A stretch of DNA of 64,000 nt from Arenimonas sp. (GCA_019459145.1 JAIBEK010000060.1:34759-98758); one strand, 5' to 3'; shown: positions 592-16,965, numbered from the stretch's first letter. Notes: generated by a model from the sequence alone, not told the origin. Program-made: numbers and translations.

Positions 592-1764
592 TCACTCCGC
601 AGCCTGTCCGAGCGGCAGCGCCGCATCGGTTGCCTTGTCATTGTTGGCGGCATGGTCCGCCGCTTTGCGCTCCCGGCGCACGGCCAGCCGCTGCTGGATC
701 GTGCCGACGACGCCCTTAGGCAGGAACAGCGTCACGCCGATGAACAGGCCGCCCAGCGCGAACAGCCAGAGTTCGGGAAAAGCTCCGGTGAAATAGCTCT
801 TACCCGCATTGACCATCAGCGCGCCGATGATCGGCCCGATCAGCGTGCCGCGCCCGCCGACCGCCGTCCACACCACCACTTCGATCGAGTTGGCCGGCGC
901 GAACTCGCCCGGATTAATGATGCCGACCTGCGGCACGAACAGCGCGCCGGCGATGCCCGCCATCATCGCCGAGACGACGAAGGTGAAGAGCTTGATGTTC
1001 TCGACGCGATAACCGAGGAACCGGACCCGGCTTTCCGCATCGCGCACGCCGACCAGCACCTTGCCGAATTTCGAATTGACGATGCCGGACGCAATCAGCA
1101 GGCAGAGCGCCAGCATCAGTGCCGAAAGGGCAAACAGCACGGCGCGCGTTCCGTCGGCCTGGACGTTGAAGCCGATGATTTCCTTGAAGTCGGTCAACCC
1201 GTTATTGCCGCCGAACCCCATGTCGTTGCGGAAGAAGGCGAGCAGCAGCGCGTAGGTCATCGCCTGGGTGATGATCGAGAGATAGACGCCGTTCACTCTG
1301 GAGCGGAAGGCGAACCAGCCGAACACGAAGGCAAGCAGGCCGGGCACGACCAGCACCATGATCATGGCGAACCAGAACATGTCCATGCCGTGCCAGAACC
1401 ACGGCAGTTCCTTCCAGTTGAGGAAGACCATGAAGTCCGGCAGGATCGGGTTGCCATAGACGCCGCGGCTGCCGATCTGGCGCATCAGGTACATGCCCAT
1501 GGCATAGCCGCCGAGCGCGAAGAAGGCGCCGTGGCCGAGCGAGAGAATGCCGCAATAGCCCCAGACCAGATCGAGCGCCAGTGCCAGCAGCGCATAGCAG
1601 AGATACTTGCCCATCAGCGACACGGCATAGGTCGGGATGTGGAAGACGCTGTCCGGCGGGGTCAGCAGGTTGAGCGCCGGCACGAGGAGCGCCACGCCGA
1701 GAAGAATGGCGACGGCGACGACGATCCTGCCTTCGAGTGCCCTGAAGATGAAGCCCGTGATCAT
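592..1764 (-). CDS. urtC: Urea ABC transporter permease UrtC
   Basis: The track ORF 592..2661 is an artefactual upstream extension. The real start MITGFIFRALEG (ATG at 1764) overlaps the urtB stop (ATGA). LivM-type permease motifs (GILSLGHGAFFALGGY). Position between urtB and urtD. Confidence 0.9.
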   Translation of the reverse strand: MITGFIFRALEGRIVVAVAILLGVALLVPALNLLTPPDSVFHIPTYAVSLMGKYLCYALLALALDLVWGYCGILSLGHGAFFALGGYAMGMYLMRQIGSRGVYGNPILPDFMVFLNWKELPWFWHGMDMFWFAMIMVLVVPGLLAFVFGWFAFRSRVNGVYLSIITQAMTYALLLAFFRNDMGFGGNNGLTDFKEIIGFNVQADGTRAVLFALSALMLALCLLIASGIVNSKFGKVLVGVRDAESRVRFLGYRVENIKLFTFVVSAMMAGIAGALFVPQVGIINPGEFAPANSIEVVVWTAVGGRGTLIGPIIGALMVNAGKSYFTGAFPELWLFALGGLFIGVTLFLPKGVVGTIQQRLAVRRERKAADHAANNDKATDAALPLGQAAE

Positions 1765-3365
1765 GCTTCCACCGCCCTTCCCTTGAGCGCGAAGAGCCCG
1801 CGCGGTCGTTTCTGGATGAAGAGAATGATCAGCACGAGCACGAGGATCTTGCCCAGCACCGCGCCGACCGAGGGTTCGAGGAACTTGTTGAGAATGCCGA
1901 GCGACAGCGCGCCGACAAACGTGCCCCAGAGATTGCCCACCCCGCCGAACACCACGACCATGAATGAGTCGATGATGTAGGCCTGGCCGAGATTGGGCGA
2001 GACATTGTCGATCTGGGAAAGTGCCACCCCGGCGATCCCGGCGATGCCGGAACCGAGCGCGAAGGTGAAGGCATCGACCCAGGGGGTGCGGATGCCCATC
2101 GACGAGGCCATGCGGCGGTTCTGGGTGACGGCGCGCATCTGCAGGCCGAAGGCCGAGCGCTTCATCAGCGTCAGCAGGGCAAAGAAGATGGTGAGCGAGA
2201 ACAGCACGATCCACATGCGGTTCCAGGTGATCGTCAGCCCGCCGAGCGCAAAGGAGCCGGACATCCACGACGGATTGCCGACCTCCTGGTTGGTCGGGCC
2301 GAAGATGGTGCGGATCGCCTGCTGCAGGATCAGCGAAATGCCCCAGGTGGCGAGCAGGGTTTCGAGCGGCCGGCCGTAGAGGAAGCGAATGACGCCGCGC
2401 TCGATCACGAGGCCGATGACGGCGGTGACGAGGAAGGCGACCGGTAGCGCGATCGCCAGCGACCAGTCGAACAGTCCGGGATAGCCGGTGCGGATCACCT
2501 GCTGGACCATGAAGGTCGAATAGGCGCCGATCATCACCATTTCGCCATGCGCCATGTTGATGATGCCCATCACGCCGAAGGTGATGGCAAGGCCAATGGC
2601 GGCCAGCAGCAGCACCGAACCGAGCGAAATGCCGTACCAGACGTTCTGCGCGGCGTCCCACAGCGCCAGATCGCCCTCGATCGCGGCAATCGCCTTGTCG
2701 AGATCGGGTTTCAGGCTCTCGTCGATCGATGAAGAGACCGTCATCAGGATGCCGATCGCCTCGCGCCCGCCGAGCGAGGCGACCCTGTCGATCGCGGCGC
2801 GCTTTTCCTCGACGGAACGGTCGGAGGCCAAAAGCGACACGGCGCGCGCCTCTTCCATGCGGGCCTTGACTTCGTTGTCCGTTTCCTTGGCAAGCGCCGC
2901 CTCGACGAGATCGAGATTTTCCGCGCTCGGCGATTGCAGGACCTGCTGCGCCGCCTGCAGCCGGACTTCACGATCGGGGCTCATGAGCGTCAGCCCGCCC
3001 AGCGCCGAGCGGATGGCGCGACGCAGATTGTTGTTGACCTTGATCTTGGTGAAGGCGCCCTTCGGCCCCTCGCCGGCCGTCTCGCCGGTCAGAGGATCGA
3101 TGGCGGCAAGATTGGAGCCGGCGGCCTTGGTGATGACGACGACGCCATCGGACTTGCGAAGGTAGAGATCGCCCTCGGCGAACGCCTCGAGTGCCGGCAC
3201 GACGCGGGCATCGCCCGTCGCGGCGATCTGCGTCAGCAGTTCCTCGGCCTGTTTGAAATTGGCCTTGCCCAGCGCGTTGATGAGATCCTTCGGATCGCTC
3301 TGCGCCATGGAGGGCACGGCGAGGGAGAGGAAAAGGATGAGTAATGAAATCAGACGAATGAGCAT
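1761..3365 (-). CDS. urtB: Urea ABC transporter permease UrtB (LivH-type core with long periplasmic N-terminal extension)
   Basis: 534-aa ORF. Signal-like N-terminus MLIRLISLLILFLSLAVPSMA, then a ~230-aa soluble segment, then a LivH-like core (INMAHGEMVMIGAY). Gene order is urtA-urtB-urtC-urtD. Confidence 0.9.
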   Translation of the reverse strand: MLIRLISLLILFLSLAVPSMAQSDPKDLINALGKANFKQAEELLTQIAATGDARVVPALEAFAEGDLYLRKSDGVVVITKAAGSNLAAIDPLTGETAGEGPKGAFTKIKVNNNLRRAIRSALGGLTLMSPDREVRLQAAQQVLQSPSAENLDLVEAALAKETDNEVKARMEEARAVSLLASDRSVEEKRAAIDRVASLGGREAIGILMTVSSSIDESLKPDLDKAIAAIEGDLALWDAAQNVWYGISLGSVLLLAAIGLAITFGVMGIINMAHGEMVMIGAYSTFMVQQVIRTGYPGLFDWSLAIALPVAFLVTAVIGLVIERGVIRFLYGRPLETLLATWGISLILQQAIRTIFGPTNQEVGNPSWMSGSFALGGLTITWNRMWIVLFSLTIFFALLTLMKRSAFGLQMRAVTQNRRMASSMGIRTPWVDAFTFALGSGIAGIAGVALSQIDNVSPNLGQAYIIDSFMVVVFGGVGNLWGTFVGALSLGILNKFLEPSVGAVLGKILVLVLIILFIQKRPRGLFALKGRAVEA

Positions 3366-3625: not shown

Positions 3626-3633
3626 AGAAGGGA

Positions 3634-4923
3634 TCAGCTACCCTTGCCGCCGCATTTTCCCGTGGCGACGTTGAAGTTGCCGCATTCCATGGGCTTGCGC
3701 CAATCGGAGATCAGGTCCTTGGAGTCGGGCAGGTAGTCGGACCATTCGTCACCGACGACGGCGGGCGTTTCCTGGACGATTTCGAACTGGCCGTCGGCCT
3801 GGATTTCACCGATCAGCACCGGCTTGGTGATGTGGTGGTTCGGCATGACGGTGGAAGTGCCGCCCGACAGGTTCGGCACGGCGACGCCGATGATACTATC
3901 GAGAACGGCGTCCGTGTCGGTGGTGCCGGCGGCCTCGACGGCCTTCACCCAGGCGTTGAAGCCGATATAGGCGGCTTCCATCGGGTCGTTGGTCACGCGC
4001 TTGTCGTTCTTGGTGAAGCCGTGCCAGGTCTTGATGAACTCGGCATTGACGTCGGCATCGACGGACTGGAAGTAGTTCCAGGCAGCGAGATGGCCGACCA
4101 GCGGCGTGGTGTCGAGACCGGCGAGTTCTTCTTCACCAACGGAGAAGGCGACGACCGGGATGTCTTCCGCCTTGATGCCCTGGTTACCCAGTTCCTTGTA
4201 GAAGGGGACGTTGGCGTCACCGTTGATGGTCGAGACGACGGCGGTCTTCTTGCCGGCCGAGCCGAACTTCTTGATGTCGGAGACGATCGTCTGCCAGTCG
4301 GAATGACCGAACGGCGTGTAGTTGATCATGATGTCCTCTTCGGCGACGCCCTTGGACATCAGATAGGCCTTCAGGATCTTGTTGGTCGTCTGCGGATAGA
4401 CGTAGTCGGTACCGGCGAGCACCCAGCGCTCGACGCCTTCTTCGGCAGCCAGGTAGTCGACGGCCGGGATCGCCTGCTGGTTGGGCGCGGCACCGGTGTA
4501 GAAGATGTTGCGCGAGGATTCTTCACCCTCGTACTGGACCGGGTAGAACAGGATCGAATTCAGTTCTTCGAAAACCGGCAGGACCGACTTGCGCGACGAC
4601 GAGGTCCAGCAGCCGAACACGGCGGCGACCTTGTCCTGCGAAATCAGTTGGCGGGCCTTTTCGGCAAACAGCGGCCAGTCGGAAGCCGGGTCGACGACGA
4701 CCGCCTCGAGTTTCTTGCCGAGCACGCCGCCCTTCTTGTTCTGCTCCTCTACGAGCATCAGCATGGCGTCCTTGAGCGTCGTCTCGGAGATCGCCATGGT
4801 GCCGGACAGCGAATGCAGGACGCCAATCTTGATGGTCTCTTCCTGGGCAAGCGCCCCGCTGACGGCGGTGGTGGAGAGCATGGCGCCGAGCAGCGCGCCG
4901 CTGAGTTTCATCTTCAATGCCAT
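3634..4923 (-). CDS. urtA: Urea ABC transporter substrate-binding protein UrtA
   Basis: 429-aa ORF with signal peptide (MKLSGALLGAMLSTTAVSGALA). LivK/AmiC-type periplasmic binding protein (KIGVLHSLSGTMAISE, FGCWTSSSRKSV). First gene of the urt operon. Confidence 0.93.
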   Translation of the reverse strand: MALKMKLSGALLGAMLSTTAVSGALAQEETIKIGVLHSLSGTMAISETTLKDAMLMLVEEQNKKGGVLGKKLEAVVVDPASDWPLFAEKARQLISQDKVAAVFGCWTSSSRKSVLPVFEELNSILFYPVQYEGEESSRNIFYTGAAPNQQAIPAVDYLAAEEGVERWVLAGTDYVYPQTTNKILKAYLMSKGVAEEDIMINYTPFGHSDWQTIVSDIKKFGSAGKKTAVVSTINGDANVPFYKELGNQGIKAEDIPVVAFSVGEEELAGLDTTPLVGHLAAWNYFQSVDADVNAEFIKTWHGFTKNDKRVTNDPMEAAYIGFNAWVKAVEAAGTTDTDAVLDSIIGVAVPNLSGGTSTVMPNHHITKPVLIGEIQADGQFEIVQETPAVVGDEWSDYLPDSKDLISDWRKPMECGNFNVATGKCGGKGS

Positions 4924-5150
4924 TGTCGTGAACCCCTCTTCTTGTTCGCAACCGGTCGGTTAATGAAATTTAACCGTTGCTGAAGAGGACTATCCGACGC
5001 TGCAGTGCAAAACGTTATACGTCGTTTGACGTAGGTCGGGGGGAAAACGAGACCTTGGCGGCGACAACCTTTGGCTTTCGGGCAGGTTGACCTTGCTCCA
5101 TGCTGCGGCCATAGGAGAATCCGAAAACTTAACAAAGGCCAGATTTTCGT

Positions 5151-5705
5151 ATGCCCATGTCTGCCCGCCGGCAGTTTCTCCGCGAACGAACCGGCCCCAT
5201 CCACCAACAACTCGACGAATGCGTCGGCACGTTTTCCGATATTCCCGCCTACCTGCGCTATATCAGGGGCATGCTTGCCTTCCGCCGCCCGATCGAAACG
5301 CAGCTGGCTTCCACGCGCCTGCCCGAAGATTTCGGCGATTTCGCGCCGAACTATCTCGCGGATGCGCTGGAACGCGACATCGCCGCGCTCGGAGCCAACC
5401 CAGCCGTTGCGGCAGAGAGCGGGCGACAGTCTTTGCCGGAGCTGAGCGCCGACGGGCTGCTGGGAACCCTCTATGTGCTAGAGGGTTCGACGCTCGGCGC
5501 AAGGTTGCTCGTCCGGCGCGCAGCCGCGCTCGGACTGGATGCGGGCAATGGCGCCGAACACCTGCAAAAACAATCGTCCGATCTCGGGAACTGGAACGCC
5601 TTTGCGGCGTTGTTGGACTCGGCAAGGGAGGTGGACGACGAGACGATGGCCCAAGCGGCCCTGGCCACTTTCGCCCATGCACTCAACGCCTTCGAGAAAG
5701 CCTGA
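5151..5705 (+). CDS. bphO: BphO-type heme oxygenase (biliverdin-producing)
   Basis: 184-aa ORF with a heme-oxygenase-like core (LYVLEGSTLGARLL). Its stop TGA at 5703-5705 directly abuts the bphP ATG at 5706. Confidence 0.75.
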   Translation: MPMSARRQFLRERTGPIHQQLDECVGTFSDIPAYLRYIRGMLAFRRPIETQLASTRLPEDFGDFAPNYLADALERDIAALGANPAVAAESGRQSLPELSADGLLGTLYVLEGSTLGARLLVRRAAALGLDAGNGAEHLQKQSSDLGNWNAFAALLDSAREVDDETMAQAALATFAHALNAFEKA

Positions 5706-8261
5706 ATGCCGTCCTCCCAGCCCGTCGACCTGACAAACTGCGATCGCGAACCGATCCATGTTCCCGGCAGCATCCAGCCGCATGGCGCGCTCATCGCCTG
5801 CGACGCCTCGGCCGGCGTGATCATTCGCCATTCGGCCAATGCCGGCGAGATGCTCGGCTACGAGGGAGCGCTCAACGACACCAATCTGACGGTCGCGCTC
5901 GGCGGCATGGCGACCCACGCCATCCGCAATGCGCTCGCCGCCGCGCCAGAGGCTTCCCGGCCGGCGCTTCTGCCCCAGCTGGCAATCGGCAATGGCCGCG
6001 TCTTCGACGTCACCGTCCACCGCCATGCCGGCCATGCCATCCTCGAATTCGAGCAGCCCGACGCCGACGTGCTGCCCTTGCAGCTTGCCCGCGAACTGAT
6101 CGGCCGTATTCGCAAGACCAAGGATACCGACGAACTGCTGCGCAAGACGACCATCCTCTTGCGCGCCGTGCTTGGCTATCACCGTGTGATGATCTATCGC
6201 CTGGAGCATGACGGCGCCGGCAAGGTGGAGGCGGAGGCCAAGCGCGGCGGCCTCGAGAGCTTTCTTGGCCAGTATTTTCCGGCAAGCGACATTCCGCAGC
6301 AGGCCCGCGCCCTCTACATAAAGAACCCGATCCGCATCATCTCGGATTCTCGCGGTGACCGCACCCCGATCGAACCGGCCATCGACGCCTCGGGCGAGCC
6401 GCTCGATCTGTCCTATGCCCACCTGCGCAGCGTCTCGCCGATCCATCTCGAATATCTGCGCAACATGGGCGTGGGCGCGTCGATGTCGATCTCGATCATC
6501 GTCGACGGGGCGCTTTGGGGGCTGATCGCCTGCCACCACTATGCGCCGAAAGCATTGAGCATGCCGCAGCGGGTCGCCGCCGAGATGTTCAGCGATTTCT
6601 TCTCCATGCACCTGCTCGGCCTGTTGCAGCAGCACAAGCTGGAAAACGTCGCCACCGCACGGCGGGCGCTGGACCGATTTTTCCAGCGCGCCTCTGAAAA
6701 GACGGAGGTGTTCGAACTGATGTGCGACGCGCTGCCCGACTTCCGCGAGGCCCTGCCCTGCGACGGCATCGGCTTGTTCCTGCAAGGGCAGTGGTGCGCG
6801 ATCGGCGACACGCCGCCGGCGACGGCCATCGAGGACCTCGCGAATTATATCTCAGGCGTCGGTGAAAAGAGGGTCTGGGCGACCCATCGCCTTTCCCAGA
6901 TCTATCCTCCCGCCGAGGATTTCCACCGCGAGGTTTCCGGCGTGCTGGCCGTTCCGCTGTCCCATATTTCCACCGATTGCCTGCTGTTCTTCCGCAAGGA
7001 ACGGGTGGAGACGCTCAACTGGGCCGGCAATCCGGACAAATCCTATGAAAGCGGACCACTGGGCGATCGCCTGACCCCGCGCAAGAGCTTCGCGATCTGG
7101 AAGGAAACGGTGGAGCGCCAGTCCGAGCCGTGGAGCGATGCCGATCGCGAGATCGCCGCCGCCGTGCATTCGGCCACCGTCGAGGTCGTGCTGCGCCACA
7201 GCGAGCTGATGCAGGAGGAGCGACTGAAGGCCGAGGTCCGTCAGCGCCTGCTGAACGAGGAACTGAACCACCGGGTGAAGAACATCCTCGCGGTCATCAA
7301 GTCGCTGGTGGCGACGCCGGCGAAGGAGGGTGCGACGCTCAAGGAGTACACCACCTCCCTCAAGGGCCGCATCCAGGCCTTGTCCTATGCCCATGACCAG
7401 GTCGTCCGCGGCAGCGGCGGCGGCGAGATCAAGGGCCTTCTCGAGGCCGAACTCTCGCCCTATCGCTCCGCCAGCGGTGCGATCCGCCTCGATGGACCGC
7501 GCGTGCAACTCGACGGGCGTGCCTTTGCGGTGGCTGCCCTGGTCTTCCACGAACTCTGCACCAATGCCGCCAAATACGGGTCCCTGTCGACCCAGGGGGG
7601 CAGGCTCGACATTGCATGGCGTGCCCGCACGAACGGTGATCTCGAGGTGACCTGGCAAGAAAGCGGCGGGCCGCCGGTGGAAATCCCGCGCACCCGCGGC
7701 TTCGGCACGGCGCTGATCGATCGCAGTATCCCCTTCGATCTCGGCGGCAAGAGCACGGTCACGTTCGACCCGGCAGGCCTCAGGGCAAGCCTGGTCTTCC
7801 CCGGCCGCTTCCTGCACCTGCAGGAGGACAGCGAAGCCAGGACCGAGGCCAAGGAACAATCCCACCCTTCAACCAGCCTGAAAGGAATTGACGACATGTC
7901 GCTCTTGCTCGTCGAGGACCAGGTCCTCATTGCGATGGATGCGGAAGCCATGCTGGCCGAACTGAATGTCGGCAACGTCGTCACGGCCAATTCCAGTGGC
8001 ATGGCACTCGACCAGTTGAAGACCTTCAAGCCGGATTTTGCCCTGCTCGACATCAATCTCGGCATCGGCACCTCCGTTCCGGTGGCGGAAGAGCTGATGA
8101 GACGCGGGGTCCCCTTCGTCTTCGCCACGGGCTATGACGATCGCACCTCGCTGCCGGCCGAATTGCTGAGCGTGCCGGTCGTGCGCAAGCCCTACGACAC
8201 GGAACAGCTGCGCAAGGCGCTCGGCGCCTATCTGGAGAAGGCTGGGGGCGAGGTGCGCTAA
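5706..8261 (+). CDS. bphP: Bacteriophytochrome with HWE histidine kinase and C-terminal receiver (Agp2-like architecture)
   Basis: N-terminus VDLTNCDREPIHVPGSIQPHG carries the biliverdin-binding Cys and PAS signature. GAF/PHY region (IPQQARALY, SVSPIHLEYLRNMGVGASMSISI). HWE kinase core (LNHRVKNILAVIKSL ... TWQESGGP). Receiver (LLLVEDQ..LLDINLG..VRKP). Confidence 0.9.
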   Translation: MPSSQPVDLTNCDREPIHVPGSIQPHGALIACDASAGVIIRHSANAGEMLGYEGALNDTNLTVALGGMATHAIRNALAAAPEASRPALLPQLAIGNGRVFDVTVHRHAGHAILEFEQPDADVLPLQLARELIGRIRKTKDTDELLRKTTILLRAVLGYHRVMIYRLEHDGAGKVEAEAKRGGLESFLGQYFPASDIPQQARALYIKNPIRIISDSRGDRTPIEPAIDASGEPLDLSYAHLRSVSPIHLEYLRNMGVGASMSISIIVDGALWGLIACHHYAPKALSMPQRVAAEMFSDFFSMHLLGLLQQHKLENVATARRALDRFFQRASEKTEVFELMCDALPDFREALPCDGIGLFLQGQWCAIGDTPPATAIEDLANYISGVGEKRVWATHRLSQIYPPAEDFHREVSGVLAVPLSHISTDCLLFFRKERVETLNWAGNPDKSYESGPLGDRLTPRKSFAIWKETVERQSEPWSDADREIAAAVHSATVEVVLRHSELMQEERLKAEVRQRLLNEELNHRVKNILAVIKSLVATPAKEGATLKEYTTSLKGRIQALSYAHDQVVRGSGGGEIKGLLEAELSPYRSASGAIRLDGPRVQLDGRAFAVAALVFHELCTNAAKYGSLSTQGGRLDIAWRARTNGDLEVTWQESGGPPVEIPRTRGFGTALIDRSIPFDLGGKSTVTFDPAGLRASLVFPGRFLHLQEDSEARTEAKEQSHPSTSLKGIDDMSLLLVEDQVLIAMDAEAMLAELNVGNVVTANSSGMALDQLKTFKPDFALLDINLGIGTSVPVAEELMRRGVPFVFATGYDDRTSLPAELLSVPVVRKPYDTEQLRKALGAYLEKAGGEVR

Positions 8262-8303: not shown

Positions 8304-8346
8304 GCCTAATTATCAACCCTCTGGAAGACGAGGCTACTAATTAGGC
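8304..8346 (+). promoter_or_regulatory. Perfect 9-bp inverted repeat GCCTAATTA-N25-TAATTAGGC ending at the kinase start codon
   Basis: Arms at 8304..8312 and 8338..8346 are exact reverse complements. The purine-rich GAAGACGAGG lies in the loop, and the ATG at 8347 follows immediately. AT-rich in a GC-rich context. Confidence 0.35.
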
Positions 8347-11300
8347 ATGGCAGCACGCCAACGCATCATCCCGGTCCGGCGCGAATACAATCGCTGGGTC
8401 GCCGACCAGACGCTCGAAGACTATGCGCTGCGCTTCACCGCCAAGAGCGCGCGGCAGTTTTCCTCGAGCCGGATCTCCCAGACGGCGATCGGGGCGATCT
8501 CCTTTCTCGCGCTCGAGGCCATCGGTGGCACGATCACGCTGTCTTACGGCACCACCAACGCCTTTTTCGCCATCGTTGCCGCCGCCGTACTGATGCTGCT
8601 CGTCGGCCTGCCGATCAGCCGCTATGCGATCCGCCACGGCGTCGACATCGACCTCCTGACCCGCGGCGCCGGCTTCGGCTATATCGGCTCGACGGTGACC
8701 TCGCTGATCTATGCGAGCTTCACCTTCATGCTGTTTGCGATCGAGGCGTCGATCATGACCGGCGCGCTGGAGCTCGCCTTCGGCATTCCGCTGTGGATCG
8801 GCTACATCATTTCGGCGCTGGTGGTGATCCCGCTGGTCACCTACGGCGTGCGGCTGATCTCGAAATTCCAGTTGTGGACCCAGCCGTTCTGGATCGTGCT
8901 CAACATTCTGCCCTTCATCTTCATCGCCTTTCTCGACTGGGAAAAGATCGACCTCTGGCGCTCCTTTGCCGGCATCGGCCATTCCAATGCCGAGGTCGGC
9001 GGAGCGGCCCCCTTCAACCTGATCGAGTTCGGAGCGGCCTCCGCCGTCATCCTCGCGCTGATGCCGCAGATTGGCGAGCAGGTGGACTTCCTGCGCTTCC
9101 TGCCGCCCGAGGGGGGGCGAAAGCTGCACCATCGCATTGCCGTCTTCCTCGCCGGCTCCGGCTGGGTCGTACTCGGCGTGCCCAAGCTGCTCGCCGGCTC
9201 CTTTCTCGCGGTGCTGACGCTGTCGACCGGGGCTCCGGCGAGCGAGGCCGCCGATCCGGCCCATATGTATCTCGCAGCCTTCGGCTACATGATCCCGAAC
9301 GAGACGGCCGCCATGCTGCTGATGGCCTGCTTCGTGGTGATCTCGCAGTTGAAGATCAACGTGATGAACGCTTATGCCGGCTCGCTCGCCTGGTCGAACT
9401 TCTTCTCGCGGCTGACCCACAGCCATCCCGGCCGCGTCGTCTGGCTGGTGTTCAACGTGGCGATCGCCCTTCTGCTGATGGAGCTCGGCATCTACCGGTT
9501 GCTCGAGGAAACGCTCGGCATCTTCTCGATCATCGCCATGGCCTGGCTCTGCGCGATCTCCGCCGACCTCTTCATCAACAAGCCGCTGGGGCTTGCCCCG
9601 CCCGGCATCGAGTTCAAGCGCGCCCATCTCTACGACATCAACCCGGTCGGCTGCGGTACCCTGTTCTTGTCCGCCGGCATCGCCCTTGCCGCCCATTTCG
9701 GGCTGTTCGGTGCCCTCGCCGCCTCGCTCTCGACCTTCGTGACCCTGATCGCCTTCGTGATTTCGCCGCTGATCGCCTGGGCGACCGGCGGCAGGTTCTA
9801 CCTGGCGCGCAAACCCCGCCACAGCTGGAAGAACCTCACCGCGATCACCTGCTCGATCTGCGAACACCCGTTCGAGCCGGAGGACATGGCCTGGTGCCCG
9901 GCCTATGCCGCGCCGATCTGCTCGCTGTGCTGCTCGCTCGACAGCCGCTGCCACGACATGTGCAAGCCGCACGCCCGGCTCAACGCCCAGGCGACGTTCG
10001 TCGCCGCCCGCTTCCTGCCCGAACCGGCGCTGGCATGGCTCTCCACACGGCTCGGCCGCTATGCCTTGACCGCGCTCGTCGCCGTGTCGCTGATCGGCGC
10101 GATCCTCGCCCTCATCGCCCACCAGGTCTCCACCGCCTCGCCGGAGACGGCCGACGTGGTCAACCGCACGGTGCTGATCGTCTTCATCGTCTCGGCCGTG
10201 ATCTCCGGCGTGGCGAGCTGGTTCTACGTGCTCGCCCATGACAGCCGCGTGGTGGCGGAAGAGGAATCCTCGCGCCAGAACACACTGCTGCTCAAGGAGA
10301 TCGCCGCCCACCGCAAGACCGACGCGGCGCTGCAGACGGCCAAGGAAACGGCGGAGGCCGCCAACCGGGCGAAGAGCCGCTATGTCGTCGGCCTGTCCCA
10401 CGAACTGCGCACTCCGCTCAATGCCGTTCTTGGCTATGCGCAGATCCTCGAGCGCGACGAGACGATCCCGCCCGCCCGCCAGTCGGCGATCAGGGTCATC
10501 CGCCGCTCGGCCGACCATCTCTCCGGGCTGATCGACGGGCTGCTCGACATTTCCAAGATCGAGGCGGGCCGGCTTCAGGTCTTTTCCAACGAGCTGAACA
10601 TCCAGGATTTCCTCGATCAGCTCGTCGACATGTTCGCCCCCCTCGCCGCCGCCAAGGGCCTCACCTTCGAGCACGAGCGGTCGCGCGCCCTGCCGCTCTA
10701 TGTCCGCACCGACGAGAAACGCCTGCGCCAGATCCTCGTCAATCTTCTGTCCAACGCCATCAAGTTCACCGACCGGGGCACGGTGCGCTTCGAGGTCGGC
10801 TATCGCAGCCAGGTAGCGACCTTCACGATCACCGATACCGGCCGCGGTATTTCGGAGAGAGACCTCAAGCGCATTTACGAGCCGTTCCAGCGCGGCGAGG
10901 CGGACAATATCCGCCCCATGCCCGGCCTCGGCCTCGGGCTGACCATCACCAAGCTTCTGACCAACACGCTGGGCGGCGAGATTGCCGTCGACAGCGAAAA
11001 GGACAAGGGCTCGAGCTTCAGGGTCCGGCTGATGCTCTCGGCGATCGACCGCCCGAGCACGGCCCCGGCGCCGGAGCGCAGGATCGTCTCCTATACCGGC
11101 CCGCGCCGCACGATCGTCGTCGTCGACGACAATGAAGACCATCGCGACCTGATGCGCGAGGTGCTCGCCCCCCTCGACTTCGTCGTGCTGACGGCTGCCG
11201 GCGGGCCGGAATGCCTGACGCTGATCGAAGGGGGCAGGCCCGATCTCTTCCTCGTCGACATCCAGATGCCCGGCATGAACGGCTGGCAACTGGTCGAGAG

Positions 11301-11736
11301 GCTGCGGGATGCCCGCCAAACCGCCCCCATCCTCATGCTGTCGGCCAATATCGGCGACGCGCCCGGCCCCGGCGGCGAGGGCCACGACGATACGATCGCC
11401 AAGCCGGTCGACGTGCGCCGCCTGCGCGACAAGCTCGCCCGATATCTCGGCCTCGACTGGATCTATGCCGACGAGCAGCCGGGCACGGCAGAGGTCTTGC
11501 CGGCGACCGACAAGTCCCCCGGCTCGCCGGGTCGGGCGCACATCGCCGAACTCACCCGTCTGAGCGAGATCGGCTATGTGCGCGGCATCGAGGCCAAGCT
11601 TGCGGACCTGTCGAAAATCGGAAAGAACAGCGCCTTCGTCGACGCCTCGCGCGGTTTCGTCCAGGCCTTCGACCTGGCCGGCTTCGCCGCCTTCCTGAAG
11701 GATGTCGACGCCCGGGAGGTGAATAACCATGACTGA
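8347..11736 (+). CDS. Hybrid sensor histidine kinase/response regulator with N-terminal NCS1 (purine-cytosine permease-like) 12-TM domain, Cys-rich insert, two extra TM helices, HisKA-HATPase, receiver and possible HPt-like tail
   Basis: 1129-aa ORF. The first ~480 aa resemble CodB/Mhp1-type permeases (KSARQFS.., HGVDIDLLTRGAGFGYIGS, QIGEQVDFLRFLP). 8-Cys cluster at aa 502-539. SHELRTPLN (H-box). DTGRGI..GLGLGLTI (G-boxes). Receiver VVVDDNEDH..FLVDIQMPGMNG..IAKP. C-terminal RAHIAELTRLSEIG. Confidence 0.85.
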   Translation: MAARQRIIPVRREYNRWVADQTLEDYALRFTAKSARQFSSSRISQTAIGAISFLALEAIGGTITLSYGTTNAFFAIVAAAVLMLLVGLPISRYAIRHGVDIDLLTRGAGFGYIGSTVTSLIYASFTFMLFAIEASIMTGALELAFGIPLWIGYIISALVVIPLVTYGVRLISKFQLWTQPFWIVLNILPFIFIAFLDWEKIDLWRSFAGIGHSNAEVGGAAPFNLIEFGAASAVILALMPQIGEQVDFLRFLPPEGGRKLHHRIAVFLAGSGWVVLGVPKLLAGSFLAVLTLSTGAPASEAADPAHMYLAAFGYMIPNETAAMLLMACFVVISQLKINVMNAYAGSLAWSNFFSRLTHSHPGRVVWLVFNVAIALLLMELGIYRLLEETLGIFSIIAMAWLCAISADLFINKPLGLAPPGIEFKRAHLYDINPVGCGTLFLSAGIALAAHFGLFGALAASLSTFVTLIAFVISPLIAWATGGRFYLARKPRHSWKNLTAITCSICEHPFEPEDMAWCPAYAAPICSLCCSLDSRCHDMCKPHARLNAQATFVAARFLPEPALAWLSTRLGRYALTALVAVSLIGAILALIAHQVSTASPETADVVNRTVLIVFIVSAVISGVASWFYVLAHDSRVVAEEESSRQNTLLLKEIAAHRKTDAALQTAKETAEAANRAKSRYVVGLSHELRTPLNAVLGYAQILERDETIPPARQSAIRVIRRSADHLSGLIDGLLDISKIEAGRLQVFSNELNIQDFLDQLVDMFAPLAAAKGLTFEHERSRALPLYVRTDEKRLRQILVNLLSNAIKFTDRGTVRFEVGYRSQVATFTITDTGRGISERDLKRIYEPFQRGEADNIRPMPGLGLGLTITKLLTNTLGGEIAVDSEKDKGSSFRVRLMLSAIDRPSTAPAPERRIVSYTGPRRTIVVVDDNEDHRDLMREVLAPLDFVVLTAAGGPECLTLIEGGRPDLFLVDIQMPGMNGWQLVERLRDARQTAPILMLSANIGDAPGPGGEGHDDTIAKPVDVRRLRDKLARYLGLDWIYADEQPGTAEVLPATDKSPGSPGRAHIAELTRLSEIGYVRGIEAKLADLSKIGKNSAFVDASRGFVQAFDLAGFAAFLKDVDAREVNNHD

Positions 11737-12652
11737 GGCGAGCCGCCCGCGCGACATCGTGCTTTTGGTCGATGACAGTCCCGAGGCGCTCGGCTTCCTC
11801 ACCGACGCGCTGGAACAGTCCGGCTTCTCGGTGCTGATCGCCACCTCCGGCCAGGCGGCCCTTTCGATCGTCGACAAGATCAGCCCGGACCTCATCCTGC
11901 TCGACGCGGTGATGCCGGGCATGGACGGTTTCGAGACCTGCCGCCGGCTCAAGGCCGATCCGGTCGTCACCCAGGTGCCGGTGATCTTCATGACCGGCCT
12001 CACCGAGACGGAGCATGTGGTCCATGCGCTCGATTCCGGTGGGGTCGACTACCTGACGAAGCCGATCAACATCGACGAGCTGCGCGCCCGCATTCGTGTC
12101 CACCTGTCGAATGCCCGCTCGGCCCAGAGCGCCCGCGTGGCGCTCGATGCCGCGGGACGGCACCTGCTGGCGGTGCGCGCCAACGGCACGATCCACTGGT
12201 CGACGCCGCAGGCAACCCGGCTGGCCGACAGCGCGACCAAAAGCGCGGACGGGCTCGACCTGGTCGCCGGCGCCATTGCCGGCTGGATGGCGAGGCGCGA
12301 AAGCCTTGCGGGCACAGCCGACGCCTCCTTCTCCTTCACCCAGGACGGCGGCACCGAACTGCTGCTCGGCTTTCTCGGCGGGCTCGGTCCGGACGAATAT
12401 CTGTTCCGCCTGACGGTCGCCAACCGTCGGCACGAGGACGAGATCCTGCGCGGTCAGTTCGGCCTGACCCAGCGCGAAGCCGAAGTGCTGCTGTGGATCG
12501 CCAAGGGCAAGGCCAACCGCGACATCGCCGATATTCTGGGGCTCTCCTCCAGAACCGTGAACAAGCACCTGGAGCAGATCTATGTGAAGCTCGGTGTGGA
12601 AAACCGGGCATCGGCCGCCGTCAAGGCGGCGCATGTGCTGCATGTGGATTAG
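11729..12652 (+). CDS. Response regulator: receiver + uncharacterised central domain + LuxR/FixJ-type HTH (CrbR/ErdR-like layout)
   Basis: 307-aa ORF. LLVDDSPEAL..ILLDAVMPGMDGFE..LTKP (receiver). C-terminal LTQREAEVLLWIAKGKANRDIADILGLSSRTVNKHLEQIYVKLGV (LuxR HTH). Its ATG at 11729 overlaps the kinase stop by 8 nt. Confidence 0.85.
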   Translation: MTEASRPRDIVLLVDDSPEALGFLTDALEQSGFSVLIATSGQAALSIVDKISPDLILLDAVMPGMDGFETCRRLKADPVVTQVPVIFMTGLTETEHVVHALDSGGVDYLTKPINIDELRARIRVHLSNARSAQSARVALDAAGRHLLAVRANGTIHWSTPQATRLADSATKSADGLDLVAGAIAGWMARRESLAGTADASFSFTQDGGTELLLGFLGGLGPDEYLFRLTVANRRHEDEILRGQFGLTQREAEVLLWIAKGKANRDIADILGLSSRTVNKHLEQIYVKLGVENRASAAVKAAHVLHVD

Positions 12653-12654
12653 GG

Positions 12655-12790
12655 GCGAGAGCGGATCTGCCCCTCATCCGCCTGCCGGCACCTTCTCCCC
12701 GTAAAACGGGGAGAAGGAACAAGCGGCACCGCCGTGGCTGTCCCCTCTCCCCGCCTGCGGGGAGAGGGTCAGGGTGAGGGGCAATGTTCT
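12655..12790. repeat. RIME/REP-like intergenic hairpin repeat cluster
   Basis: CCTTCTCCCCGTAAAACGGGGAGAAGG and CCCTCTCCCCGCCTGCGGGGAGAGGG hairpins. 12669..12716 matches 3407..3454 almost base for base. Lies between two convergent genes. Confidence 0.75.
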
Positions 12791-12809
12791 TCGATCGTCG
12801 GCAGCTAGG

Positions 12810-14456
12810 CTACAGCGCCCTCGCCTTCTCGCGCAGCACGTATTTCTGGATCTTGCCCGTCGAGGTCTTCGGCAGGGCGCCGAACACCACGGTCTTCGGC
12901 GCCTTGAAATGCGCCATGTTGGCCCGGCAAAACGCGATCAATTCCTGCTCCGTCACCGTCGCGCCGGGTTTCAGCCCGACAAAGGCGCACGGCGTCTCGC
13001 CCCATTTCTCGTCGGGCCTGGCGACGATCGCCGCCTCCATCACCGCCGGATGGCGGTAGAGCACGCCCTCGACCTCGATCGAGGAAATGTTCTCGCCGCC
13101 GGAGATGATGATGTCCTTGGAGCGGTCCTTGATCTCGATATAGCCGTCCGGATGGCAGACCGCGAGGTCGCCGGAGTGGAACCAGCCGCCGGAAAACGCC
13201 TTGGCCGAGGAGGACGGGTTCTTCAGGTAGCCGCGCATGACATTATTGCCGCTGAAGAAGATCTCGCCCATGGTCTCGCCGTCGCGCGGCACCGGCTCCA
13301 GCGTTTCCGGATCGGCGACCATCAGCCCGTCGAGCACCGAATAGCGCACGCCCTGACGGGCCTTCAGCCGGGCCTTTTCCGAAATGTCGAGTTCGTTCCA
13401 CTCGTCGTGCCAGGCGCAGACCACGGCGGGGCCATAGGTTTCGGTCAGGCCATAGGTGTGGGTCACGTCGAAGCCGAGTTCCTCCATCGCCTGGATCACC
13501 GAAGCCGGCGGGGCGGCGCCCGCCGTCATCACGCTGACCTTGTGATCAATCCCGGCCTTCAACTCGTCCGGCGCATGGGCGATCAGGTTGAGCACGATCG
13601 GCGCGCCGCAGAAATGCGTCACCCCCTCGCTCTTGATGAGATCGTAGATCGGCTCGACGCGCACCGCCCGCAGGCAGACGGACACGCCGGCGGCCGCCGC
13701 GATGGTCCAGGGAAAGCACCAGCCATTGCAATGGAACATCGGCAGCGTCCACAGATAGACCGGGTGGTTGGCCATGTTCCAGGTGAGGATGTTGCCGATT
13801 GCGTTCAGATAGGCGCCGCGGTGATGATAGACGACGCCCTTCGGATCACCGGTCGTGCCGGATGTGTAGTTGAGGCTGATGGCATCCCATTCGTCGGCCG
13901 GACGCTCCCACTTGAAGTCGGCATTGCCGTCCGCGAGCAGTTCGTCATAGGTAACCGCACCCAGTCGATCTCCGCCCTCGAAGCTCGGATCGACGATGTC
14001 GATCACCTCGATCGGCCGGCCGGCGATATGCACGGCACGCTCCACGACCTCGGCAAACTCCGGGTCGACGATCAGCAGGCGCGCCTCGCCGTGGTTGAGG
14101 ATGAAGGCGATCGCCTCCGCGTCGAGGCGTGTATTGATGGCGTTGAGCACCGCGCCGGCCATCGGCACGGCGAAATGGCACTCGAACATTTCCGGTATGT
14201 TGGCGGCGATCACCGCGACGGTGTCGCCCTTTCCGATGCCGCGCCGGGCAAGCGCGCTCGCCAGACGCCGGACCCGGTCATAGGTTTGCGCCCAGTTGCG
14301 CCTGACCTCGCCATAGACCACCGCCGGGCGCCCCGGATAGACGGCGGCGGCGCGCTCGATGAAGCTCAGCGGCGTCATCTGGGAAAAGTTCGCGGCGTTC
14401 TTGTCGAGTTCGCGATCGTAGATGCCGTCGCCGGACGTCGTCACAGGGCCTTGCAT
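12810..14456 (-). CDS. AMP-forming acyl-CoA synthetase (short/medium-chain acid-CoA ligase family)
   Basis: The track ORF is 12810..14510. The likely start is MQGPVTTSG at ATG 14456. AMP-binding motifs YTSGTTGDPKGVVY, THTYGLTETYG and GWFHSGDLAV..DRSKDIIISGGENISS. Confidence 0.85.
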   Translation of the reverse strand: MQGPVTTSGDGIYDRELDKNAANFSQMTPLSFIERAAAVYPGRPAVVYGEVRRNWAQTYDRVRRLASALARRGIGKGDTVAVIAANIPEMFECHFAVPMAGAVLNAINTRLDAEAIAFILNHGEARLLIVDPEFAEVVERAVHIAGRPIEVIDIVDPSFEGGDRLGAVTYDELLADGNADFKWERPADEWDAISLNYTSGTTGDPKGVVYHHRGAYLNAIGNILTWNMANHPVYLWTLPMFHCNGWCFPWTIAAAAGVSVCLRAVRVEPIYDLIKSEGVTHFCGAPIVLNLIAHAPDELKAGIDHKVSVMTAGAAPPASVIQAMEELGFDVTHTYGLTETYGPAVVCAWHDEWNELDISEKARLKARQGVRYSVLDGLMVADPETLEPVPRDGETMGEIFFSGNNVMRGYLKNPSSSAKAFSGGWFHSGDLAVCHPDGYIEIKDRSKDIIISGGENISSIEVEGVLYRHPAVMEAAIVARPDEKWGETPCAFVGLKPGATVTEQELIAFCRANMAHFKAPKTVVFGALPKTSTGKIQKYVLREKARAL

Positions 14457-14550
14457 GTTCGTTGAGCCTCCCACTCCAGTCGAGCGGGCAGTATTACCGA
14501 AACGGCGCAACCTGCAACATCATCCCTTCGCCTAAAGCGATTGGGCTCCG

Positions 14551-14580
14551 AAACGAGAAAGCCCGGCACGAGGCCGGGCT
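14551..14580 (-). terminator. Rho-independent terminator downstream of braC
   Basis: AGCCCGGC-acgag-GCCGGGCT stem-loop. On the minus strand it is followed by TTTCTCGTTT. Located 25 nt after the braC stop. Confidence 0.6.
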
Positions 14581-14604
14581 TCCCACTCAATGACAGGCAG
14601 TCGC

Positions 14605-15723
14605 TCAGATGCCCTGCTGGAAGTAGCTATACTTGCCGTCTTCGCCCTTCTTCCACTCGTACATGACGTAGCCGGGAAGCTTCGGGTCGCCCTTTTCGTC
14701 AAAGCCCATATCGCCCAGAGCGGTAGCGAAGGTGTTGGCCTTCATCGCTTCACCCACGGCTTCCGGTTCGTTCGAGCCAGCCTTCTTGGCGGCTTCGGCG
14801 ATGACCTGCATGGCAGCGTAGGAGTACAGGGTGTAGGCTTCCGGCTCGAAGCCCGACGCGCGGAACTTCTCAACAAGTTCCTTGTTCTGCGGTGCCAGGC
14901 GCGGGTCCGGGCCGAAGGTGTTGAGCGTGCCTTCAACGGCATCGCCGGCGATCGAGGCCAGTTCGTTGGAAACGATACCGTCGCCCGAAACGAGCTTGGC
15001 CTTCAGGCCCTGGTCAGATGCCTGACGAATGATCAGGCCAGCTTCGGTGTGGAGACCGCCCCAGTAGATGACCGAAACGCCGGCTTCCTTCATCTTGGCG
15101 ATGAGGGCCGAGAAGTCCTTGTCGCCGGCATTGACGCCTTCGTAGACCACTTCCGTCAGACCAGCCGCATTCATGGCCTTCTTGGTTTCGTCGGCAAGGC
15201 CCTGGCCGTACGGGGTCTTGTCGTGAACGACAGCAATCTTGGCGTCCTTGAAATTGTCGGCGAGATACTTGCCCGCGATACCGCCCTGTGCGTCGTCACG
15301 ACCGCAGGTGCGGAAGGTGTTCCACATGCCGCGTTCGGTGAAGACCGGGTTGGTCGAGGCCGGGGTGATCTGCAGGATGCCGTTCTCGGCATAGACTTCC
15401 GAAGCCGGGATCGAAACGCCCGAGTTGAAGTGGCCGACCACGAACTTGACACCGTCGGCGACGAACTTGTTCGCAACCGAAATGCCCTGCTTGGGGTCAG
15501 CGACGTCGTCACCCAGGACGATCTTGACCTGCTCGCCGTTGATGCCACCAGCCGCGTTGATGTCGGCAGCCGCCTGTTCAGCGCCCTTCTGGAGCTGCGC
15601 ACCGAAAGCAGCGTTCGGGCCGGTCAGCGGACCACCAACGCCGATCAGCAGATCCGCCCAAGCATTGCCGCCGAAGGCCATCACAGCCGTCAGCGCAACG
15701 GCCGAAAGAAGAGACTTCTTCAT
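14605..15723 (-). CDS. braC: Branched-chain/general amino-acid ABC transporter substrate-binding protein
   Basis: 372-aa ORF with signal peptide [23 protein letters not shown]. Leu/Ile/Val-binding protein family ([22 protein letters not shown]). Lies downstream of braDEFG, as in the Rhizobium bra locus. Confidence 0.9.
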
Positions 15724-15863
15724 TTTGTTACTCCCAATTTTTTAGGCGGGTTAGGTTTCAAGAACCCTGCGCAATACCCACCATGACTGCGCCGGAAAAG
15801 CTGTTCCACTCTTATGAAAGCTCACGCTCTTGCCGCACATGTGAGGCAAGAAAAACGCGGCTG

Positions 15864-16217
15864 TCAATCTTTCTTCTTCCACGAAAAGGCCGAGGTCTTT
15901 TCGTATAGCCAATAATAGTTATCAACCATCTGGGTAGTCCGCCGCGAGCGATAGCCTGCGGTAGAAAAAGCAAGCAAAATCAACACATCCAAGCCATAAA
16001 GCAGGGGGCTGACAAACGGCCCCTGGAACAGCGAGTAGTGCAGGAAGCGCATGACCACGCCCAAAAGGAGGGTGTAGACGAGGACCGTCGGATAGGTCTG
16101 CCAGCCCTCTGCCACCGCCTTGCCGGTCCGCCATGCGGTCCAGAAGCCGAGCAGCAGAACCAGGAAGCGCAGAACCATGCGGACGCCGGTATCGCTTTCG
16201 AAAAACAAGCCTTGCAT
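15864..16217 (-). CDS. Small integral membrane protein of unknown function between braG and braC
   Basis: The likely start is MQGLFFESD (ATG 16217) within track ORF 15864..16268. Three predicted hydrophobic helices (VLRFLVLLLGFWTAW, VLVYTLLLGVVM, LDVLILLAFSTAGY). Same strand and tightly spaced with the bra genes. Confidence 0.55.
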   Translation of the reverse strand: MQGLFFESDTGVRMVLRFLVLLLGFWTAWRTGKAVAEGWQTYPTVLVYTLLLGVVMRFLHYSLFQGPFVSPLLYGLDVLILLAFSTAGYRSRRTTQMVDNYYWLYEKTSAFSWKKKD

Positions 16218-16236
16218 ATCTAATCCCCTTCCACCC

Positions 16237-16965
16237 TCAGTGGTGGCCGCCTTCGAGATAGGCCGCACGGACCGAAGGATCGGCGAGCAGTTCCTTGCCC
16301 GTCCCGCTCATGGTGACCTTGCCGTTGACCATGACATAGGCACGGTCGGAAAGCTTGAGCGCGGCAAAGGCGTTCTGCTCGACGAGGAAGACGGTGAGTC
16401 CCTCTTCCTTGTTGAGCTTCTTGATGGCCTCGAAGATGCCCTTGACGATCAGCGGCGCGAGACCGAGCGACGGCTCGTCGAGCAAGAGTAGCTTGGGGCG
16501 CGCCATCAACGCGCGGCCGATGGACAGCATCTGCTGCTCGCCGCCGGACAGCGTTCCGCCGCGCTGGGCATGGCGTTCCTTGAGGCGCGGGAAGAGCGTG
16601 TAGATCTTCTCGACGTCCTCATTGAAATATTTCAGGTTGTCGAGACCCGCCCCCATCTGGAGGTTCTCATAGACGGTCATGCGCGGAAAGATCCGACGAC
16701 CTTCGGGCGACTGGGCGATGCGACGGCGGGCGATCAGGTGGGTCGGCATCTTGGTGATGTCGGTGCCGTCGAAGGTGACCGTGCCGGCGCGCGCCTGCGG
16801 GCTGCCGCAGATGGTCATCATCAGCGTCGACTTGCCGGCGCCGTTGGCGCCGATCAGGCTGACGATCTCACCCTTGTGGACCTCGACGTCGACGCCGCCG
16901 AGCGCCCGGATGTTGCCGTAATAGGTCTCGACGCCCTGTACTTTGAGAAGCGGTTCGGAAGACAT
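16237..16965 (-). CDS. braG: Branched-chain amino-acid ABC transporter ATP-binding protein (LivF type)
   Basis: 242-aa ORF. GANGAGKST (Walker A), LSGGEQQMLSIGRAL (signature), LLLLDEPSLGLAP (Walker B). Its start overlaps the braF stop. Confidence 0.9.
   Translation of the reverse strand: MSSEPLLKVQGVETYYGNIRALGGVDVEVHKGEIVSLIGANGAGKSTLMMTICGSPQARAGTVTFDGTDITKMPTHLIARRRIAQSPEGRRIFPRMTVYENLQMGAGLDNLKYFNEDVEKIYTLFPRLKERHAQRGGTLSGGEQQMLSIGRALMARPKLLLLDEPSLGLAPLIVKGIFEAIKKLNKEEGLTVFLVEQNAFAALKLSDRAYVMVNGKVTMSGTGKELLADPSVRAAYLEGGHH

Follow-up and report, generated by a model that had tools for sequence, protein, structure and literature searches.

A stretch of 64,000 nt from Arenimonas sp. (GCA_019459145.1, JAIBEK010000060.1:34759-98758; hereafter the window) encodes, at 8347..11736 on the + strand, a hybrid sensor histidine kinase (HK) of 1129 amino acids (aa) whose N-terminal membrane domain is modelled as a 12-transmembrane (TM) LeuT fold with a 5+5 inverted repeat, the nearest known family being NCS1. 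Structure prediction and profile comparison indicate a remote origin of this core among CodB-type NCS1 transporters. The family is distinct and not typical NCS1, its kinship being visible only as a fold and as a weak profile match to CodB. Behind the core lie a cytoplasmic module of eight invariant cysteines (Cys8) and a two-TM hairpin, which we infer to couple core and kinase. From the genes that accompany it in 82 related loci, the sensor is predicted to belong to an uncharacterised two-component system responsive to urea or short amides, an assignment that we regard as evenly balanced; that urea or a short amide is itself the ligand, bound in a central pocket of the core, is a suggestion that falls a little short of an even chance.

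The transporter-like core and its kinship to NCS1

The sensor gene and the parts of its product are laid out as follows, with the source of each assignment in brackets; AF2 denotes AlphaFold2 and DHp the domain for dimerization and histidine phosphotransfer.

8347..11736, + strand: hybrid sensor histidine kinase, 1129 aa (open reading frame, translation and Pfam; stop included)
8347..8463, + strand: conserved cytoplasmic N-terminal segment, aa 1-39, with the 'P/A-x-SAR' pre-TM1 motif (hhalign)
8464..9786, + strand: predicted 12-TM LeuT-fold, NCS1-like core, aa 40-480 (AF2, Foldseek, hhalign)
9787..9978, + strand: cytoplasmic Cys-rich module, aa 481-544 (invariant Cys and AF2 model)
10048..10224, + strand: TM13-TM14 hairpin, aa 568-626 (hydropathy and AF2 helices 568-597 and 599-669)
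10225..10353, + strand: signalling helix or coiled coil, aa 627-669 (one AF2 helix, aa 599-669, unbroken from TM14)
10372..10569, + strand: HisKA (DHp), aa 676-741, phospho-His H685 in SHELRTPLN (Pfam E=3e-16)
10708..11037, + strand: HATPase_c catalytic domain, aa 788-897 (Pfam E=1.5e-24)
11113..11436, + strand: receiver (Response_reg), aa 923-1030, with D971 and K1019 (Pfam E=3.9e-20)
11437..11733, + strand: conserved C-terminal tail, aa 1031-1129, 'LG-x-IGYVRGIEAKL...AFD' (conserved motif; not a histidine phosphotransfer, HPt, domain)

Hydropathy places twelve TM segments between aa 47 and 472, and two further TM helices past the Cys-rich stretch (aa 568-597 and 599-626) that are also present in the AF2 model. 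In 80 genomes the alignment of sensor orthologues begins at residue 1. An initial annotation, made from the sequence alone, had already described an open reading frame (ORF) of 1129 aa at this position, and the translation agrees; the HisKA (SHELRTPLN), HATPase_c and receiver domains that it named are all matched by Pfam, its Cys-rich insert, two extra TM helices and coiled coil are borne out by hydropathy and the AF2 model, and the motifs that it quoted lie at aa 33-39 (KSARQFS), 97-115 (HGVDIDLLTRGAGFGYIGS) and 241-253 (QIGEQVDFLRFLP). Among 40 representatives of the family, which are only 34-53% identical to the window protein, D25 and R36 of the N-terminal segment are invariant, and the receiver residues D971 and K1019 are kept in 37 and 35, respectively. 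An ORF of 1220 aa antisense to the sensor (8341..12003, - strand) was discarded as a shadow ORF of the kind typical of DNA with 62-68% GC. Databases carry only generic names, 'response regulator' or 'ATP-binding protein', for the sensor (MBW8447545.1) and its S. meliloti orthologue (CAC49921.1, Q92TJ2).

The fold was assigned from structure prediction. A first AF2 model, built with 30 close homologues, was mediocre (predicted local distance difference test, pLDDT, 73), although Mhp1 and CodB already ranked first in Foldseek; a second model, of aa 1-670 and from 90 diverse sequences, took its place and reached a pLDDT of 91.8 and a predicted TM-score (pTM) of 0.90. In this second model the helices are broken at TM1 (aa 50-54) and TM6 (aa 237-240), a hallmark of the LeuT fold. 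Every Foldseek match in the PDB was a LeuT-fold transporter, and ranks 1-5 were all NCS1 structures (Mhp1/CodB, E 1e-9 to 1.6e-7), with best scores of E=1e-9 for Mhp1 and E=2e-9 for CodB, the latter with a TM-score of 0.79 on the CodB length. The best match outside NCS1 was SiaT (SSS) at E=3.4e-6, followed by AdiC, SGLT2, Nramp and NKCC1; NCS1 was thus ahead of the other LeuT-fold families by >1000-fold in E-value.

Searches with sequence models, by comparison, returned no NCS1 family. Pfam gave no PF02133 (Transp_cyt_pur), SSF or STAC match for the whole sensor at E<=1, and no family at all, PF02133 included, for aa 1-520 at E<=10. A phmmer search of the N-terminal domain against all PDB chains produced only noise at E<=10, and a 30-sequence profile matched no PDB chain at the same threshold, though Mhp1 and CodB are both in the library. 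PF02133 is also absent from the 25 most frequent Pfam families listed for 40 diverse members. When 1.84 billion representative proteins were searched with the profile, only 2038 representatives matched, the best 150 of which were all strong members of the sensor-core family; classical NCS1, a far larger family, is therefore beyond the reach of the profile. The initial annotation had seen a whole NCS1 permease here. The complete 12-TM LeuT fold stands, as the structure prediction and its top Foldseek matches (Mhp1/CodB) bear out and with NCS1 nearest in both Foldseek and hhalign, but a significant match to the NCS1 hidden Markov model (HMM) was sought in Pfam (PF02133) and not found.

The link to CodB at the level of sequence comes from profile alignment. 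With the 40-representative profile, hhalign aligned E. coli CodB locally at E=1.7e-4 and a probability of 49%, over 212 collinear columns, and the score of 40.0 compares with 10-20 for 31 negative controls (reversed CodB and AllW, 24 shuffles, a major facilitator superfamily (MFS) protein, UrtB, UrtC, LivM and LivH). A shallower profile gave a marginal result against CodB (E=0.019), and hhalign of the sensor-core profile with AllW stayed at background level. The sensor segments KSARQFS, HGVDIDLLTRGAGFGYIGS and QIGEQVDFLRFLP are paired with CodB QSARKG, TGLTTHLLARFSFGVKGS and TADFVRFG, and around the pre-TM1 motif sensor AKSARQ is aligned with CodB PQSARK. Residues kept between the two include G49 (G29 in CodB), F53 (F33), D247 (D213), R250 (R216) and Y343 (Y285). 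The COG-based name given to homologues by the Joint Genome Institute (JGI), 'purine-cytosine permease-like protein', agrees with the CodB link.

The same alignments point to departures from NCS1 in the substrate and ion sites. In CodB, a TM3 Trp and a TM6 Phe/Trp sandwich the substrate, an arrangement 'conserved throughout the NCS1 family', and the ligands of Na+ are carbonyls of TM1 and of Asn275 together with the Thr278 and Thr279 hydroxyls (10.1101/2021.12.23.473980). This aromatic clamp is not seen in the sensor family, where Leu or Phe occupies the aligned positions: CodB W108 corresponds to L129 (Phe in 31, Leu in 8 and Tyr in 1 of the 40 representatives) and F204 to L238 (Leu in 37/40), both at an alignment probability of 49%. 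In the global hhalign alignment (probability 9.5%), sensor KINVMN lies opposite CodB NIWTTN, so that K336, a Lys in 40/40, faces N275 of the Na2 site, V339 faces T278 and M340 faces T279. The fixed Lys at the Na2 position presumably recalls Na+-independent LeuT-fold proteins, e.g., ApcT with its K158. E57, E133, Q241, Q245, K336, N338 and N341 are invariant in the representatives and E244 is Glu in 39/40, from which we infer a pocket lined by invariant or near-invariant polar residues in place of the aromatic clamp.

Conservation, modularity and the Cys8 module

Conservation, measured as the majority fraction across the 40 representatives, is 0.82 in TM3, 0.75 in TM8 and 0.79 in TM9, and 0.85 and 0.77 in the cytoplasmic loops 8-9 and 10-11. 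The kinase domains stand at ~0.48, and the long periplasmic loops are lowest at 0.29-0.45. The core is thus more constrained than the kinase, with the constraint falling on surfaces inside the membrane and facing the cytoplasm, a pattern that speaks against a dead anchor and likewise against a periplasmic binding protein docking there.

The eight cysteines of the Cys8 module (C502, C505, C517, C525, C528, C529, C535 and C539, within aa 502-539) are all invariant across the representatives at <=53% identity. In the AF2 model the module forms a beta-hairpin and a helix on the cytoplasmic side with a pLDDT of ~93, which we read as zinc-ribbon-like, and it is probably metal-binding. It has no significant Pfam match, and identification as an FmdB-type zinc ribbon or a CCG-type module was rejected for want of Pfam support. 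Further on, TM14 continues in the AF2 model as a single helix (aa 599-669) into the DHp.

The family comprises 2038 clusters at 50% identity and is found in >597 species-level genomes. Its outputs vary: among the 40 representatives, HisKA with HATPase_c occurs in 34, a receiver in 31, GGDEF-EAL in 5, SpoIIE in 1 and a true Hpt domain in 5, with PAS or GAF domains in some. The unit of core and Cys8 is fused to an HK in 34/40, to GGDEF-EAL in 5/40 and to SpoIIE in 1/40, and behaves as a portable sensory input module. Stand-alone homologues of ~550 aa (P0255, P0192) end directly after the Cys8 module, without an output domain; core plus Cys8 is therefore the ancestral unit, and these proteins may be free-living transporter or receptor ancestors of the fused sensors. 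They are encoded at L086 184-1869 and L087 892-2532, and one of them adjoins a Y1 transposase. Four parts of the system are without a Pfam model, namely the N-terminal domain, the Cys8 module, the tail and the middle region of the regulator.

The C-terminal tail is a small conserved domain, common to about a third of the representatives, and is not an HPt domain. A HPt-like His had been suggested for it in the initial annotation; the residue concerned, H1065, is His in only 57/80 orthologues and otherwise Asp, Val, Tyr, Gln or another residue, Pfam finds no match in the tail, Hpt included, and hhalign against the true HPt domains of family members returns a probability of 0.3%. On these three grounds the HPt reading was abandoned.

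The regulator, the urt operon and a candidate operator

The genes and sites around the sensor that enter the argument are listed below; REC denotes the receiver and HTH the helix-turn-helix domain.

11729..12652, + strand: cognate response regulator, 307 aa, with REC (aa 11-123) and LuxR/GerE HTH (aa 246-300) (Pfam)
3634..4923, - strand: urtA, urea ABC transporter (NCBIfam TIGR03407, 558 bits against a cut-off of 492.75)
1761..3365, - strand: urtB, urea ABC transporter permease (NCBIfam TIGR03409, 433 bits against a cut-off of 250)
592..1764, - strand: urtC, urea ABC transporter permease (NCBIfam TIGR03408, 453 bits against a cut-off of 296)
5017..5033, no strand assigned: palindrome ATACGTCGTTTGACGTA upstream of urtA, candidate operator of the LuxR-type regulator (motif search)
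5151..8261, + strand: hemO, for a heme oxygenase, and bphP, for a bacteriophytochrome (PAS_2-GAF-PHY-HWE_HK-REC), inserted between the candidate urtA operator and the sensor gene (Pfam)
12810-14510, - strand: AMP-binding acyl-CoA synthetase (NF006020, 948 bits)
14605-15723, - strand: Liv-type binding protein, a real gene opposite a shadow ORF

The regulator gene overlaps the kinase gene by 8 nt. Between REC and HTH the protein has ~120 aa (aa 124-245) with no Pfam match at E<=10. It is unusually long, and the long form (306-325 aa) is kept even in the distant loci L094, L096 and L097.

The arrangement was followed through 82 related loci from Rhizobiaceae, Devosia, Roseibium, Pleomorphomonas, Bradyrhizobium, Xanthobacteraceae, Cellvibrio and a Burkholderiales metagenome-assembled genome. 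A LuxR-type regulator lies directly downstream of the sensor in 79/82, the three exceptions being contig ends, and a divergent urea/amide ABC operon of the urtABCDE type stands beside the sensor in 80/82. The transporter of the Bradyrhizobium-type clade is a paralogue, with a substrate-binding protein (SBP) only ~38% identical that is still above the UrtA cut-off; there the operon continues into genes for the formamidase FmdA (757 bits) and the aliphatic amidase AmiE (722 bits). In Shinella, amidases and a second Urt/Liv-like ABC system lie downstream. A similar grouping of fmdA, urtABCDE, a hybrid HK and a LuxR regulator is described for Ectopseudomonas guguanensis, by annotation only (PMC13296017, 2026). 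Farther out, 1 nt separates ureG (345 bits, cut-off 204) from the gene for the distant member P0174 (41% identity) downstream, and intermediate members keep the long LuxR regulator and not urt. In the P0174 locus (L097), ureG (294-911) and the sensor (913-4236) are followed by a LuxR regulator and a TonB-dependent receptor. The gene before another member, P0126, encodes an oxalate/formate/lactate-type MFS transporter with scores below family cut-offs (L094 6542-7759).

Intergenic regions between urtA and the sensor were surveyed for shared sites in the 54 loci where the two start codons are <600 nt apart. The palindrome ATACG(T/C)-N6-(A/G)CGTA is present in 51 of the 54, against 0.04 sequences expected from shuffles; it is single-copy in all but one locus, and its distance from urtA hardly varies. 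Two clade-specific half-sites occur, ...ACGTC/GACGT... in one clade and ...ACGC/GCGT... in the other. The copy at 5017-5033 is the sole match in the window (0.01 expected) and lies on the urtA side of the hemO-bphP insertion. Considering this distribution and the synteny, it is likely that the LuxR-type regulator binds the palindrome and controls the urt operon. No Rfam element was found in the intergenic regions. The k-mers TGCACCGCAAAAT and GTGCAGCGCA recur in many of them, and beside the palindrome a second conserved element occurs at 4999-5015 (cgctgcagtgcaaaacg in the window), which could be a promoter element or the site of a second regulator, e.g., an NtrC-like one.

The hemO-bphP pair is found between urtA and the sensor elsewhere in only 4/82 related loci (L007, L008, L009 and L013); it is lineage-specific and outside the conserved system. 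No promoter or terminator consensus was found between bphP and the sensor gene, and the sensor operon in the window is therefore probably read through from hemO-bphP, in which case one transcript may there serve both light sensing and the putative urea sensor. The region between urtA and the sensor looks like a hotspot of insertion, with inserts of 4-5 kb in L014, L016, L024 and L057. In the closest genome, Rhizobium terricola (L006, 95% identity), the gap between urtA and the sensor is ~1.17 kb (8829-10001) and lacks bphP.

On the other side of the regulator lies a convergent cluster (12810-20153, - strand) of an acyl-CoA synthetase and a LivJ/F/G/M/H-type ABC transporter. The parallel of CrbS and acs prompted its consideration as a target of the system, and it was set aside, being conserved in only 2/82 loci; it is probably unrelated to the sensor. 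Two ORFs on the + strand (12774-14465 and 14590-15786) were likewise discarded as members of the sensor operon: they are high-GC shadow ORFs opposite real genes on the - strand, made of Arg/His/Gly-rich nonsense without family matches. A Pfam scan of the remaining window matched mostly shadow ORFs and added nothing.

Proposed function, rival explanations and known systems

The ligand in the mechanism that we propose is small and polar, with urea and short amides of the formamide/acetamide type as the likeliest candidates, and would occupy the central pocket formed by E57, E133, Q241, E244, Q245, K336, N338 and N341. Binding would set off a bundle-versus-hash rocking of the core, and the movement would pass through the conserved cytoplasmic loops to the Cys8 module, the TM13-14 hairpin and finally the kinase. 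Phosphate would then be transferred to the overlapping REC-LuxR regulator, either directly or via the internal receiver, and the regulator, seated on the palindrome between the divergent operons, would control uptake genes of the urtABCDE type, joined in some lineages by genes for formamidase and amidase in the same operon. The core may still transport, as a transceptor comparable to CbrA, or may only bind; the stand-alone homologues and the high conservation of the core fit either. Nucleobases, hydantoins and allantoin, the ligands put forward in the initial annotation, are not those to which the gene neighbourhood points, namely urea and short-chain amides.

Several observations weigh against this proposal. 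Members of 35-50% identity with GGDEF-EAL or HPt outputs do not adjoin urt and have the same pocket residues, so the ligand of the conserved pocket may be of a more general kind than urea, e.g., an ion or a proton. The window protein has M340 (9364-9366) at the position aligned with CodB Na2-site Thr279, where 36/40 representatives have Thr, and the mapping of pocket and Na2 site is drawn entirely from a low-probability alignment (49% local, 9.5% global). No HPt domain was found in the sensor by Pfam or hhalign for a phosphorelay to the regulator, and in the window hemO-bphP separates the candidate operator from the sensor gene. Ligand, DNA binding and regulon are all predictions from comparative genomics.

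Other explanations for the same data were considered. The one that fares best, itself improbable, treats the membrane core as a scaffold only and assigns sensing to the Cys8 module, which would respond to a metal (Ni, Zn) or to redox through Zn/Fe-S chemistry. In its favor are the family-wide invariance of the eight cysteines, the cytoplasmic position of the module directly before the transmitting hairpin, and the distant member that adjoins ureG (nickel insertion) and a TonB-dependent receptor. However, no part of the protein is more conserved than the membrane core, and invariant or near-invariant polar residues at positions aligned with the CodB substrate and Na2 sites would be unexpected in a passive anchor; the formamidase, amidase and urt contexts share no metal requirement, and the cysteine pattern could simply be a structural zinc site.

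That the sensor is a classical NCS1 permease for nucleobases, hydantoins or ureides (allantoin), fused to a kinase, is less probable still. Its membrane domain has no PF02133 match and no sequence match in the PDB, and the aromatic clamp is lost (position 129 is Phe or Leu, Leu in the window, and position 238 is Leu). Furthermore, the neighbours encode a urea ABC transporter, formamidase, aliphatic amidase and UreG, and not allantoinase, hydantoinase or cytosine deaminase. These points outweigh the closeness of the NCS1 fold, the standing of CodB as the only detectable sequence relative and the fit of the 'purine-cytosine permease-like' name, even though an association of urt with an NCS1-type ligand is not absurd, as ureide breakdown yields urea. 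An equally low probability attaches to co-sensing, in which the kinase would have no ligand of its own and would read the Urt ABC transporter or UrtA by protein contact, like BceS-BceAB or DctA-DcuS: adjacency to an Urt-type transporter is almost obligatory in the urt-linked subfamily, but the short or poorly conserved periplasmic loops (0.29-0.45) are a poor docking surface for UrtA, the partner transporter varies strongly by clade (SBP only ~38% identical) while the sensor core stays conserved, and some proteins that have this core lack an Urt neighbour altogether.

Returning to a sensor that binds urea or a short amide in its core, a wider and distinctly speculative extension is that the NCS1-derived core and Cys8 together form a widespread, unrecognised module for the reception of urea or of some other polar nitrogen compound of very small size, a true transceptor with metal-bound Cys8 as mechanical coupler, plugged into two-component, c-di-GMP (GGDEF-EAL) and PP2C (SpoIIE) outputs. 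If so, it would stand as the first bacterial urea sensor in the membrane, and transporter-kinase fusions would have arisen a second time, independently. Urea and short amides are major nitrogen sources, urea being the dominant fertiliser, and the system offers a testable candidate for their detection in many soil, rhizosphere and marine Proteobacteria. Sensor, regulator, candidate operator sequence and predicted target operon are all defined, and an orthologue is available in the tractable model S. meliloti 1021 (pSymB; UniProt Q92TJ2).

The initial annotation knew of no characterised NCS1-fused kinase, and its view holds in the searchable literature, with databases giving generic names only. 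In full-text literature neither a characterised kinase fusion of the NCS1 type nor a two-component system responsive to urea came to light; subscription journals are mostly outside this coverage, and earlier work is possible. A preprint on the CbrA structure calls transporter-kinase fusions rare and discusses only SLC5 (2026). The closest parallel is with the SLC5-STAC kinases CbrA, CrbS (MxtR) and RpuS, whose regulators are CbrB, CrbR (ErdR) and RpuR, and which likewise join an N-terminal LeuT-fold transporter to a histidine kinase. The SLC5 domain of CbrA binds and transports histidine (PMC7096432, PMC13022988), and CrbS/CrbR works through a LuxR-type regulator acting via an inverted repeat (PMC5715377). 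As in CrbS, the sensor is a hybrid kinase with a C-terminal receiver and a LuxR-type regulator that probably uses an inverted repeat at nutrient uptake or use genes (PMC5715377, PMC9100948, PMC13022988). In contrast to the SLC5/SSS domains of those kinases, which have 13 TM, the sensor core is NCS1-like with 12 TM; by Pfam it lacks STAC and PAS and has the Cys8 module and two-TM hairpin instead, and the predicted target is a urea/amide ABC operon and not acs/actP or mctP. The sensor is therefore analogous to CbrA and CrbS, and not a member of the SLC5-STAC group. Transporter-kinase fusions have so far been known only with SLC5 domains (CbrA, CrbS, RpuS); here a different LeuT-fold lineage appears to have given rise to the same design, with another coupling device (Cys8 and TM hairpin, not STAC), which provides a second system for asking how transporter motions become kinase control. 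What is new is the transporter lineage, the coupling module and the predicted signal.

With CodB (7QOA) and Mhp1 (2JLN; TC 2.A.39) the sensor core shares the predicted fold, and the pre-TM1 SAR, the TM2-3 loop LLxR-x-FG-x-GS, the TM6 DFxRF (R250 = CodB R216) and the TM8 Tyr (Y343 = CodB Y285) are collinear. Unlike in these transporters, the clamp is lost (L129, L238), Lys stands for Asn275 of the Na2 site, and Val and Met (in the family mostly Val and Thr) stand for Thr278-Thr279. Moreover, the domain of the sensor family always comes with Cys8 and is mostly fused to signalling outputs.

Receptors derived from transporters are known from other settings. E. coli UhpC, a transporter-derived receptor without transport, controls the expression of a true transporter. 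Yeast Ssy1, likewise a transporter-derived receptor without transport (PMC12958826), has its ligand site in a transporter fold and governs the expression of the true transporter, a design comparable to the one proposed here. Unlike the sensor, whose outputs are covalently fused, Ssy1 and UhpC are separate proteins that signal via partners. Bacterial regulation of urea and amide use involves UreR (AraC family), AmiC-AmiR, and control of urt by NtrC/NtcA. These are cytoplasmic or of the periplasmic-binding-protein type, and to our knowledge none is a membrane two-component kinase or has a LeuT fold. The predicted target is nevertheless held in common with them, as urease, amidase and urea uptake genes.

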